A stretch of DNA of 51,816 bases from a virus (lineage: Duplodnaviria; Heunggongvirae; Uroviricota; Caudoviricetes). The translations under genes and the position numbers were made by a program. Below the pieces are notes generated by a model. That model saw only the letters and a program-made list of their open reading frames with translations, was not told the origin of the DNA and did not search any database. Of this stretch, positions 11,815 to 15,133 are shown piece by piece (the stretch's first letter is position 1; each line of letters begins with the position of its first letter). The stretch is from the IMG/VR virus record IMGVR_UViG_2627854066_000007, one strand, 5' to 3'.

Positions 11815-12216
11815 GTGGCAAAAGTTTTTACACAAGAAGAGCGGGAAAAAATTAAAGGGCAGGTTGTTGAACTCGTACGCCGGAGTGGGCGTGAGACGTT
11901 ACGGCAACTGGAAGTCAAGACAGGTGCGACAAGATATCTGATGAGCGTTCTCGCAAGAGAGCTGGTTGCCAGCGGCGATGTATACAACTCTGGTTACGGG
12001 TTATTCCCGTCTGAACAGGCGCGTAAGGACTGGCAAAATGCCCGTAAAAAGCTCTCAAGGGCAAAGCTGAAGAAACCATCTGCGGTTGATCCGGACCTTA
12101 TCTGGTCATTACCTGACGGAGAAATACGTCGCTACGACAGGCGTCAGAACATAATCTGCCGCGAGTGCCGGAAGAGTGAAGTTATGCAGCGCATACTGGC
12201 ATTTTATCAGGGATAA
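11815..12216 (+). CDS. Hypothetical phage protein (133 aa, GTG start)
   Basis: ORF downstream of the replication gene, basic, with a CRECRK motif; no family recognised. Confidence 0.5.
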   Translation: MAKVFTQEEREKIKGQVVELVRRSGRETLRQLEVKTGATRYLMSVLARELVASGDVYNSGYGLFPSEQARKDWQNARKKLSRAKLKKPSAVDPDLIWSLPDGEIRRYDRRQNIICRECRKSEVMQRILAFYQG

Positions 12217-12749
12217 TGTTAGATATTTTAGACGTTACTAGATTAAAAAGCATTAGTTCAGGAGTGAATTGACATTCTCATTTTTCATGGCACAGGGTAG
12301 ATCTGGCGTGGTTGTCCGCTTTGTGCCAACAGCGGACGTTACTAACGAAACTGTGAGTTAAAAACGGGAGCTGGTCACCTCCATCCCGCGAAATGGAATT
12401 CAAAAATGCCCTCATGTACGGTACTTCTAGTCTGATGTGAGCATTTTCGTGGATTTTTTCGAGCCACTCCAACGAATGATTACATTCAGTTTCGGGCACT
12501 AAAACGTCATAAATCCGCAAGTTGAGGAGTAGCGATCAGCCAATTGGTTAAAAAACAGCTTTAATTCCCTTTTTCAAGCAGGCTCCTTGTCGCACGTCTG
12601 GTGCATCCAATTCATTTCAGTTACCCTGATGCCATACTGGCACGGACTAGCTCTCTTAATTGGCGCTGGTTTGTTAACCTTGTCCGCTGTCGGGTCTTTG
12701 TAAGTTGTAATTCCTAAACTAGCATAATTTTATTATAAGGCCTCTTACT

Positions 12750-13775
12750 ATGCACATTTTATCTGTTTCAAAAAAGGAAGTTGGAAGAGCTGGGGATAGA
12801 TTAGTTTCTCAGTTTGGTACAGGTGAAAAATATAAAGAGGAAGATGTACAAATTCTTCATGAGTGGAGGATGTTGCATTTATATCCTTTAAGTAAAATAC
12901 AATTTTATATGGAAAGAGAGGCTATTTCCTTAAACAAAAATGCGTTACTATCCTCTAGAATTAAGAGGATGCCTTCCATTGTTACTAAGCTTTCTAGATT
13001 TCCTGATATGAAGTTAAATAAGATGCAGGATCTTGGTGGGTGCCGGGCTATTTTAAATAATCTGGATCAAGTGTATGATTTAGTTAATAAAATAAAATCA
13101 TCTAAATTCTCACATGAACTAGTTAGAATGGATGATTACATGATAGACGTGAAAGATTCTGGTTATAGAAGCTTTCATATGGTCTATTCATTCCAAAATA
13201 AAAAATTTCCATCTTTAAATGGGTTGCGCATTGAAATGCAAATAAGAACAGCTATTCAACATAGCTGGGCTACAGCAGTTGAAATGGTTGGTTTGTTTCG
13301 AAAGGAATCATTGAAATCTGGTTTTGGTGATGCAAGATGGCTTAGGTTTTTTGAATTGGTATCAGAGCTTTTTTATAAACTTGAGTATGAAAAAGAACCA
13401 TCTGGGAGTTATATAAAAATATCAGAAGAATTAAGTTATTTATCCGTCGAGTTGAATGTTTTCGATATATTAGCTGCTTACAATGCCGTAGTTAGCCATA
13501 TTGAGGGTAGCAAAAAATATGATAAAGGACTTTGCATAATTGTTGTTGATACCATAAAGCGGAATATAAATATAAAGAGCTTCGAAAATCACAATCATGC
13601 GAAGGCGGCAGAAGCTTATGTCGAGTCTGAAAAATACTGCGCGGAAAATAAAGGCTGTGAAGTGGCTATGGTTTCTGTTAGTTCAATTAGTGAATTAAAA
13701 AATGCATATCCTGCTTACTTTTTAGATACGAAAACTTTTTTAAATTATCTCAGTAGGTATGTTTTTATAAAATAA
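12750..13775 (+). CDS. RelA/SpoT-like nucleotidyltransferase (small alarmone synthetase-like; candidate toxSAS/CapRel-type)
   Basis: 341-aa ORF carrying RSH synthetase motifs in order: R70-x-K72-x3-S76-x3-K80, D94-LGGCR99, G138-YRSFH143, E162-MQIRTAIQHSWA174; gene is strongly AT-rich versus flanks; ~120-aa C-terminal extension beyond the catalytic core. Confidence 0.8.
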   Translation: MHILSVSKKEVGRAGDRLVSQFGTGEKYKEEDVQILHEWRMLHLYPLSKIQFYMEREAISLNKNALLSSRIKRMPSIVTKLSRFPDMKLNKMQDLGGCRAILNNLDQVYDLVNKIKSSKFSHELVRMDDYMIDVKDSGYRSFHMVYSFQNKKFPSLNGLRIEMQIRTAIQHSWATAVEMVGLFRKESLKSGFGDARWLRFFELVSELFYKLEYEKEPSGSYIKISEELSYLSVELNVFDILAAYNAVVSHIEGSKKYDKGLCIIVVDTIKRNINIKSFENHNHAKAAEAYVESEKYCAENKGCEVAMVSVSSISELKNAYPAYFLDTKTFLNYLSRYVFIK

Positions 13776-14208
13776 AAAATGTTATCTGGAGTGGTCTGAA
13801 TTCTACTAACTTAGTTTTTTCAGACCGCTTCTGACCACAATGGCCTGTGAGGTTCTGCTGCTAGTCAACATAAAATAACAAAGCCGGCAGGTGGTGGTTG
13901 TTGTAAAGTTATTCAATGACATTCATGGAGGCTTAAGCGAATTATTTGTCCCTGGTCGGTATGGTGGCAACAGCTTGTTGCGAGAATTTGGCTAATTTGG
14001 ACTGACTTCCGCTCCTTGCTCAAAGCGGACTAGAAGGTTAGCTTGTGTCGGACTTTGCGTATTAAAAGAAGTGCTGGTGGTGACTAGTGGTTGAGCCCCA
14101 TTTCCACAGAAAAAATCAGAGAAACTATACCCAATAGTTGTATTGAATCACTGACGAGACAGCCTCATATTCATCAGGACTGGTGTACGTCCAATACAGG
14201 AGGTTGTG

Positions 14209-14298
14209 GTGCTGGTTCTCAAATGTGCGCTGGCTATTACGGCTGTAATGGCGATTTATTGTCTTGCTATTGTTCTTATGGATCGCCTTTCTGACTGA
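14209..14298 (+). CDS. Candidate 29-aa hydrophobic peptide (type I toxin-like)
   Basis: AGGAGG at 14198-14203, 5 nt before GTG; product MLVLKCALAITAVMAIYCLAIVLMDRLSD is a single predicted transmembrane helix with a charged tail. Confidence 0.3.
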   Translation: MLVLKCALAITAVMAIYCLAIVLMDRLSD

Positions 14299-14509
14299 TT
14301 TCATATTGGCGAGGTAAAGGTAGTTAAGTAGAATGGCTGCGGGTGCTTGAGGCTATCTGCCTCGGGCATGAACACCAAAGGCAGATAGAGAAAAGCCCCA
14401 GTTAACATTACGCGTCCTGCAAGACGCTTAACATTAATCTGAGGCCAATTTCATGCTAGACACATGTAGGTTAGCCTCTTACGTGCCGGAAGGCAAGGAG
14501 AAGCAGGCT

Positions 14510-14665
14510 ATGAAGCAGCAAAAGGCGATGTTAATCGCCCTGATCGTCATCTGTTTAACCGTCATAGTGACGGCACTGGTAACGAGGAAAGACCTCTGCG
14601 AGGTACGAATCCGAACCGGCCAGACGGAGGTCGCTGTCTTCACAGCTTACGAACCTGAGGAGTAA
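14510..14665 (+). CDS. hok: Hok-family type I toxin
   Basis: 51-aa ORF MKQQKAMLIALIVICLTVIVTALVTRKDLCEVRIRTGQTEVAVFTAYEPEE, a canonical Hok/Gef sequence; in-frame upstream extension from 14453; structured leader upstream. Confidence 0.85.
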   Translation: MKQQKAMLIALIVICLTVIVTALVTRKDLCEVRIRTGQTEVAVFTAYEPEE

Positions 14666-14733
14666 GAGACCCGGCGAGGGAGAAATCCCTCGCCACCTCT
14701 GATGTGGCAGGCATCCTCAACGCACCCGCACTT

Positions 14734-14760
14734 AACCCGCTTCGGCGGGTTTTTGTTTTT
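14734..14760 (+). terminator. Rho-independent terminator downstream of hok
   Basis: GC-rich hairpin AACCCGCTTCGGCGGGTT followed by TTTTGTTTTT. Confidence 0.5.
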
Positions 14761-14881: not shown

Positions 14882-15133
14882 ATGATGAACATCGAAGAAC
14901 TGCGTAAAATTTTTTGTGAAGATGGCCTCTATGCTGTGTGCGTTGAAAATGGAAATCTTGTTAGTCATTACCGCATTATGTGTTTGCGAAAGAATGGGGC
15001 TGCGTTAATTAATTTTGTGGATGGTCGAGTGACAGACGGATTTATCTTGCGCGAAGGTGAGTTTGTCACTTCATTACAGGCACTGAAAGAGATCGGAATA
15101 AAAGCAGGCTTTTCAGCTTTTGCAGAAGAATAA
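14882..15133 (+). CDS. Rem-like small phage protein
   Basis: 83-aa ORF in the position and size of rem in K-12 Qin (between hok and ydfU); name by synteny only. Confidence 0.45.
   Translation: MMNIEELRKIFCEDGLYAVCVENGNLVSHYRIMCLRKNGAALINFVDGRVTDGFILREGEFVTSLQALKEIGIKAGFSAFAEE

Follow-up and report, generated by a model that had tools for sequence, protein, structure and literature searches.

The small inner-membrane proteins AcrZ, MgrB, MgtS, CydX, and KdpF of E. coli are non-toxic and bind larger membrane proteins. Type I toxins (Hok/Gef, TisB, Ldr, ShoB, Ibs, DinQ, and ZorO) are also very small hydrophobic peptides with a single helix. In lambdoid phage biology, the prophage genes that are expressed in the lysogen from their own promoter are called morons. 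Here we analysed a 29-codon frame that shares features with these three groups. It lies in a viral record (IMGVR_UViG_2627854066_000007), whose full 51,816 nucleotides are hereafter called the window. The window holds a Qin-like lambdoid prophage, and the identical locus is annotated in E. coli strain 104, in which the gene order is dicB, ydfD, cI/cro-like, replication genes, DUF977, RelA/SpoT-domain, hokD, rem, ydfU, antiterminator, and lysis. The original prediction had seen in this frame an unannotated peptide with the architecture of a type I toxin, perhaps stacked with other toxin modules. Our results indicate that the frame is a genuine, conserved protein-coding gene whose relatives are translated, and we consider it reasonably probable that its product is a lysogen-expressed, non-toxin inner-membrane microprotein of the Qin-like prophage, linked to hok but separable from it.

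Table 1. Features of the locus in window coordinates
Feature	Positions	Strand	Basis or remark
DUF977 gene	11815-12216
CapRel-like RelA/SpoT fused toxin-antitoxin gene, variable cargo	12750-13775	+	PADLOC, PDB, and Pfam matches
-35-like hexamer TTGAAT, putative small-gene promoter	14143-14148	+	conserved over a diverged spacer
-10-like hexamer CATATT, putative small-gene promoter	14166-14171	+	at least 90% conserved in every column
Shine-Dalgarno AGGAGG of the small gene	14198-14203	+	5 nt before GTG 14209
Small gene, product MLVLKCALAITAVMAIYCLAIVLMDRLSD, predicted single-helix membrane microprotein	14209-14298	+	GTG start, TGA stop
hok promoter TTGGCG-17-TAGAAT	14306-14334	+	nearly invariant in relatives
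hok mRNA 5' leader including the Sok-targeted region	14341-14515	+	Rfam RF01794 (sok), 117 bits, E 3e-27, full model length
mok frame overlapping hokD	14453-14665	+
hokD, 51 aa	14510-14665	+	WP_000813254.1, 'type I toxin-antitoxin system toxin HokD', identical locus
Intrinsic terminator of the hok transcript	14734-14760	+	first terminator downstream of the small gene
rem	14882-15133

Like AcrZ and the other small proteins cited above, the peptide has fewer than 50 residues and one transmembrane helix (predicted here), is translated in growing cells, and is under moderate purifying selection; it differs from them in being carried by prophages, confined to Escherichia and Shigella, and often lost, and in having a conjectural partner. 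The resemblance to morons lies in the self-contained unit of putative promoter, Shine-Dalgarno sequence, and ORF, placed among the early-right operon genes of a lambdoid prophage and beside other cargo expressed in the lysogen (hok, defence genes), whereas the lack of a terminator of its own and the putative status of the promoter set it apart from them.

Read directly from the sequence, the Shine-Dalgarno motif is followed by TT and by two successive GTG codons, at 14206-14208 and 14209-14211, and the mechanical ORF list starts the frame at the first of them (30 aa). Among relatives, codon 14206 varies (GTC, ATC, TAT, GCC, or GTT) while codon 14209 is GTG, or ATG on Shigella plasmids, and never otherwise, indicating that the true start is 14209. 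From there, the frame closes with the TGA at 14296-14298 and encodes M-LVLKCALAITAVMAIYCLAIVLMDRLSD. The coordinates originally given for the motif, its 5-nt spacing, and the GTG opening a 29-codon frame are thus correct, and the start is now fixed by comparison. AGGAGG occurs 19 times in the window on both strands, and four of the other occurrences precede long ORFs at 4-5 nt spacing; translation of the small gene would begin at GTG 14209 behind this strong Shine-Dalgarno sequence.

The 29-aa peptide has a GRAVY of 1.74 and is the most hydrophobic of the 440 ORFs of 25-60 aa found in the six frames of the window. AlphaFold models it as one continuous helix covering residues 2-29 (pLDDT 92), in agreement with the single transmembrane helix announced by the original prediction, and such a peptide would be expected to insert into the inner membrane. 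No helical face shows significant conservation (p = 0.17), which leaves the binding of a partner a conjecture; if the peptide acts on another membrane protein, it would probably do so by contacts between transmembrane helices. Inside the ORF, a terminator-like hairpin (GCTATTAC/GTAATGGC, then GATTTATTGT) can be drawn at 14233-14252 on the plus strand; its stem is kept via wobble pairs in the common variants and its T-tract is poor.

Two sets of copies were compared, 130 from IMG/VR and genomes found by a pattern inside the ORF, and 131 anchored on the hok promoter alone. In both sets, the full-length copies share the same start site and their frame is always open, so that the conservation of the peptide in homologous prophages, whose absence would have spoken against the original prediction, is found. 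GGAGG, GGAG, or GGGGG stands at a constant distance before the start in 130/130 copies, and the Shine-Dalgarno sequence and start codon survive where the upstream DNA has been replaced (phage HannyBb, E. coli BL21, and plasmid pWR100). The open frame alone is weak, non-significant evidence because 65 random substitutions leave the frame free of stop codons in about 27% of histories (P about 0.27). Substitutions were therefore counted by frame on a neighbour-joining tree of 29 unique alleles. We obtained 28 synonymous and 37 non-synonymous changes (omega about 0.47), distributed over codon positions 1/2/3 as 19/14/32, as compared with an omega of 0.8-1.1 in the other five frames of the same DNA. 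Pairwise omega ranges from 0.13 to 0.62 when a diverged 34-aa type, described below, is included. For the small-protein cluster Escherichia_98807 (389 members), the values published independently are dN 0.074, dS 0.161, and dN/dS 0.46 (Fesenko et al. 2024, PMC11188072, Table S4). As judged from these alleles, the small-gene frame is under purifying selection of moderate strength (omega about 0.5).

Two ORFs overlapping the small gene were rejected as genes. The 67-aa ORF at 14091-14294, which had already been suspected to be spurious, is intact in only 24/47 unique relatives with a dN/dS of about 1.1, and the 59-aa minus-strand ORF at 14125-14304, annotated in phage HannyBb, is broken in about half of the relatives (omega about 0.8-1.1). 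In one allele (L006 1501-1706; also L073, L079, and L130), the small gene has lost its stop codon through an 11-bp deletion, and the peptide grows to 35 aa (…FSDWRGRGS); hok is replaced there by an IS element.

The strongest evidence for the small gene, as far as sequence comparison goes, comes from its diverged 34-aa relative. This peptide (MSDDISLVMEGALAVIAVVGVYCLVVFLMERLGN, ATG start, RefSeq WP_001278460.1) aligns without gaps to the 29-aa peptide with 50% identity, 79% positives, and a pairwise E of 3e-10, the genes being about 62% identical in DNA with a saturated dS of about 1 and a dN of about 0.36. In other lambdoid prophages, the 34-aa gene immediately precedes the hokD promoter, as the 29-aa gene does here, and the flanks of the two genes are unrelated on both sides. 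The 34-aa type is found in 672 genomes, with up to 5 copies per O157:H7 genome, and within it 7 synonymous changes and a TGA-to-TAA change were counted vs 2 conservative replacements.

Ribosome profiling at the GTG had been proposed as a check, and published data of this kind exist for relatives of the window allele, namely the BL21 and Sakai alleles. The BL21 copy has 13 retapamulin (Ribo-RET) initiation-site counts, and 38 footprints cover 90% of its ORF (PMC11188072), indicating initiation at this start in a relative; the signal is low compared with the 102-1461 counts of known small proteins in the same table (PMC11188072). The BL21 locus (L008 1204-1613) has undergone a deletion that joins a shortened DUF977 gene to the sequence immediately preceding the Shine-Dalgarno motif of the small gene; the putative promoter is thereby lost, and the DUF977 and small-gene frames overlap by about 40 nt. 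The 34-aa type was catalogued in O157:H7 Sakai as XECs145, a predicted inner-membrane protein with one helix, and is among the better-translated small ORFs of growing cells (PMC5597208). In LB, its transcriptome RPKM is 79, its translatome RPKM 346, its RCV 4.35, and its coverage 0.99; in BHI, the first three values are 121, 150, and 1.14, and translation is almost off under combined stress (PMC5597208). These footprints were assigned by the authors to a longer frame of 54 codons at a multi-copy locus (PMC5597208).

Could the peptide be functionless, its DNA being kept as the upstream part of the hok promoter or through a recent spread of the module, with incidental ribosome loading? Nucleotide conservation is indeed high over the whole stretch from the Shine-Dalgarno sequence to the hok promoter, loci truncated at cargo junctions (see below) keep only the last 20-40 nt adjoining the hok -35 hexamer, and both the non-significance of the open frame taken by itself and the low BL21 initiation signal would fit. 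However, synonymous changes are enriched in the small-gene frame only, the 34-aa type keeps the peptide despite its DNA divergence and different flanks, and the ribosome-binding site and start codon are retained in front of replaced upstream DNA in HannyBb, BL21, and pWR100. We consequently regard a functionless peptide as very unlikely.

Upstream of the small gene, the arrangement TTGAAT-17-CATATT recurs at one alignment position in 38 of 46 unique relatives; its spacer diverges, and the 10 nt following CATATT vary freely. Such a footprint is the one expected of a sigma-70 promoter, and we consider it a putative promoter from which the small gene would be transcribed in the lysogen. Transcription is predicted to start at about 14177-14179, giving a leader of about 30 nt. 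One of the relatives, described below, stands on the Shigella invasion plasmid pWR100 upstream of icsP, in a region silenced by H-NS. The start-site table of Shigella M90T (PMC7132871, Table S3) contains no start at the pWR100 equivalent of the predicted site; the nearest same-strand starts, 90709, 90726, and 91318, correspond to two icsP starts and to a 'novel transcript' 321 nt upstream (PMC7132871). Immediately before the putative promoter, about 135 nt (14008-14142, plus strand) are shared with mEp460, Tritos, and others despite different cargo; this block contains a CCGCT...AGCGG hairpin and has neither a conserved ORF nor an Rfam match.

The pWR100 copy (MLVLKGTLAIAAVMTIYCLIVVLMERFSD, ATG start) precedes icsP by about 260 nt. 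On this plasmid hok is absent and the remnant of the hok leader has decayed, with many changes and an indel, while the small frame, its Shine-Dalgarno sequence, and the promoter hexamers are intact (-35 as TTGAGT). Between the pWR100 and window alleles, 7 codons differ synonymously and 8 by conservative replacements, with a pairwise omega of 0.18. The identical peptide is present on 134 invasion plasmids from four Shigella species and enteroinvasive E. coli (EIEC), that is, within the much-studied regulatory region upstream of icsP. The DNA 150-400 nt upstream of the icsP start codon (pWR100, NZ_CP037924.1; L203 2930-3200) has the appearance of a prophage-module fossil; it comprises the small gene, a hok promoter (TTGGCG...TAGAAT) that seems intact, and the hok 5' leader in decayed form, beyond which lies AT-rich icsP DNA. 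A literature search on icsP and hok returned nothing relevant, and no paper describing this fossil was found.

The type I toxin proposal implies a new toxin depolarising the inner membrane and held down by an unseen antisense or divergent small RNA, as for TisB, ShoB, Ldr, and Hok. Among the traits generally expected of such toxins are a small hydrophobic membrane-targeted peptide and translation that is off in growing cells. The first is present: the size of the peptide, its single hydrophobic helix, and its short charged tail all fit, its gene is carried by a prophage and has a bona fide type I locus and a CapRel-like toxin gene as neighbours, and many such peptides are toxic when overexpressed. 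The second is not, as shown by the short leader, the efficient translation of the 34-aa relative in growing cells (RCV of 4.35 in LB), unlike a silenced toxin, and the initiation observed in BL21. In addition, the leader and ORF (14188-14305) are not significantly structured on the plus strand (z -1.13 vs shuffles), whereas type I toxin mRNAs have leaders that are long and structured, and the minus strand folds no better (z +0.08 vs shuffles). The antisense RNA is hypothetical. A minus-strand TTAACT-18-TAAAAT motif present in 23/46 unique variants could give rise to an antisense transcript covering the whole ORF, but this motif reads TGAAAT in the window, without the key A at position 2, a promoter scan gives no minus-strand site between 14100 and 14340, and no opposite-strand start is listed near the pWR100 copy in the M90T table (PMC7132871). 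This promoter-like motif (14290-14332, -35 from 14327) overlaps the hok promoter back-to-back.

Searches for relationships with known toxins were also negative. The peptide matches no toxin family at E<=10, Hok/Gef (Pfam PF01848) included, BLASTP against the neighbouring HokD gives no alignment at E<=100, and no Rfam family reaches threshold over the ORF. On the minus strand, an Rfam 'sok' match at 14257-14399 was rejected as far below threshold (20 bits, E 0.16), and a 15-nt inverted repeat at 13834/14196, considered as a possible link, was discarded since it lies in cargo-specific DNA and is not conserved. Finally, the Shigella plasmid copy persists without hok/sok. Altogether, the peptide is unrelated in sequence to any type I family, no conserved antisense promoter accompanies it in the window, and the label of type I toxin is unsupported; we consider this interpretation unlikely, while toxin-like activity on overexpression is possible. 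Of the stacked modules envisaged by the original prediction, the two neighbours, the CapRel-like gene and hok/sok, are true toxin modules, and the small peptide as a further one is unsupported. At its native level, the peptide would rather behave as a non-lethal membrane microprotein than as a silenced toxin. Describing a real gene that is probably no toxin corrects the annotation and avoids the over-calling of toxin-antitoxin modules.

As originally described, the small gene lies between a RelA/SpoT-like gene and the hok promoter and leader. The former (PADLOC PDC-S33, E 5e-119; Pfam RelA_SpoT) matches PDB 7ZTB and 9ERV over its full length (E 2.6e-34, residues 6-338) and is related along its whole length to CapRel, a protein of anti-phage defence in which toxin and antitoxin are fused. 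It occupies an interval of variable cargo, from DUF977 to the small gene (about 12217-14007), which in other genomes holds SIR2, DUF4145, QueH, an alpha/beta hydrolase, or a 449-aa hypothetical protein. The right-hand cargo junctions vary, at about 14008, 14130, 14186, and 14256-14276 (window vs L001, L002, L005, L006, L009, and L010). The small gene and hokD are thus the conserved right flank of a hotspot in which defence genes are swapped, and the small gene marks the fixed right border of a lambdoid-prophage site exchanging anti-phage genes (CapRel-like, SIR2, DUF4145, and others). Among 120 viral contigs anchored on the hok promoter, the gene is full in about 73 and cut in about 46; the truncating junctions fall at about 14256, 14262, and 14276, and the hok promoter is always spared. 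Since cargo junctions truncate it in about 38% of the hok-anchored loci, the small gene is dispensable.

The position of both diverged types immediately upstream of the hokD promoter suggests a long-standing linkage, and raises the question of whether the peptide is an accessory of the phage hok/sok system, either as a membrane partner tuning Hok or as a leading cistron transcribed through the hok promoter. In the window-type arrangement, the small gene has its stop codon 8 nt away from the downstream hok -35 hexamer, and no terminator was found between 14298 and the hok promoter, so that transcripts of the small gene should read into hok. Against an accessory role, hokD with an intact promoter is often without the small gene, as in the cut loci above, and the peptide gene is found in only 4 of about 20 phage records with identical HokD; conversely, it persists on invasion plasmids devoid of hok. 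Neither repeats nor complementarity were found between the small ORF and the Sok target region, and the peptide has no sequence relation to Hok. Because hokD and the peptide gene each occur without the other, it is unlikely that the peptide is strictly required as an antidote to Hok or as a co-toxin, and we judge the accessory role as a whole improbable. We are equally doubtful that the peptide is an unrecognised functional partner of phage hok/sok, either as a toxin of a new type I family stacked on hok or by modulating Hok killing or abortive infection from the membrane; were this true, the recurring pair of peptide gene and hokD would form a composite module guarding the edge of the prophage defence hotspot. 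If the peptide acts with Hok or in phage exclusion, a classic system would gain an added component. The preferred reading of a lysogen-expressed microprotein is compatible with a gene that is habitually linked to hokD yet functionally separable from it. A weak Rfam isrK match (14674-14755, plus strand, 25.7 bits, E 0.011, threshold 50) over the 3' end of the hok transcript and its terminator is probably mere terminator similarity.

The claim that the peptide is unannotated needs to be qualified. PGAP mostly omits the gene, but in at least one genome it lists the homologous 90-nt CDS under the RefSeq accession WP_000960667.1 (hypothetical protein). The Shigella copy is predicted by Prokka, and public collections contain the exact 29-aa sequence, likewise labelled hypothetical. 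The family is also listed in two small-ORF catalogues, those of Fesenko et al. 2024 (PMC11188072) and Hücker et al. 2017 (PMC5597208; the 34-aa type as XECs145). By sequence identity, the window peptide belongs to the Entero67K cluster Escherichia_98807/WP_000960667.1, whose BL21 member (VLVLKCTLAIVAVMAIYCLVIVLMDHLSD) is about 86% identical to it, and WP_001278460.1/XECs145 belongs to the same family. The gene is therefore already catalogued as hypothetical. These entries assign no function to the peptide and, in their searchable texts, do not mention the linkage to hokD, the existence of two diverged types, the promoter, or the copy upstream of icsP; peptide strings and accessions retrieved nothing from the main texts of the literature. 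No family of Pfam, NCBIfam, or PHROGs matches the peptide at E<=10 and none of PADLOC at E<=1. A phmmer search of 1.84 billion representatives gave only 9 matches, each at least 83% identical, which means that remote relatives remain invisible to it.

The gene is nevertheless widespread. A survey of 5426 complete E. coli genomes shows that 1734 carry 80% or more of the stretch 14120-14345, almost never with an annotation, so that a translated membrane peptide mostly skipped by standard annotation resides in about a third of these genomes. It is also found in phages mEp460, Evi, Tritos, and HannyBb, and in E. albertii and E. ruysiae. The core of the E. coli-type ORF also has exact matches in short contigs attributed to a 'Candidatus Scatousia' MAG and a Haemophilus MAG (L131 and L133), which are most likely misbinned E. 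coli DNA. Lastly, a second family of hydrophobic ORFs, absent from the window, occurs in many prophages at a distance of 100-340 nt upstream of the small gene; these unannotated ORFs of 25-27 aa follow the pattern M.WPEAF...G.A.A..LVY.ICRWG and comprise about 13 variants (L205 2370-2447, L007 1282, L017 3185, L250 1382, and others).
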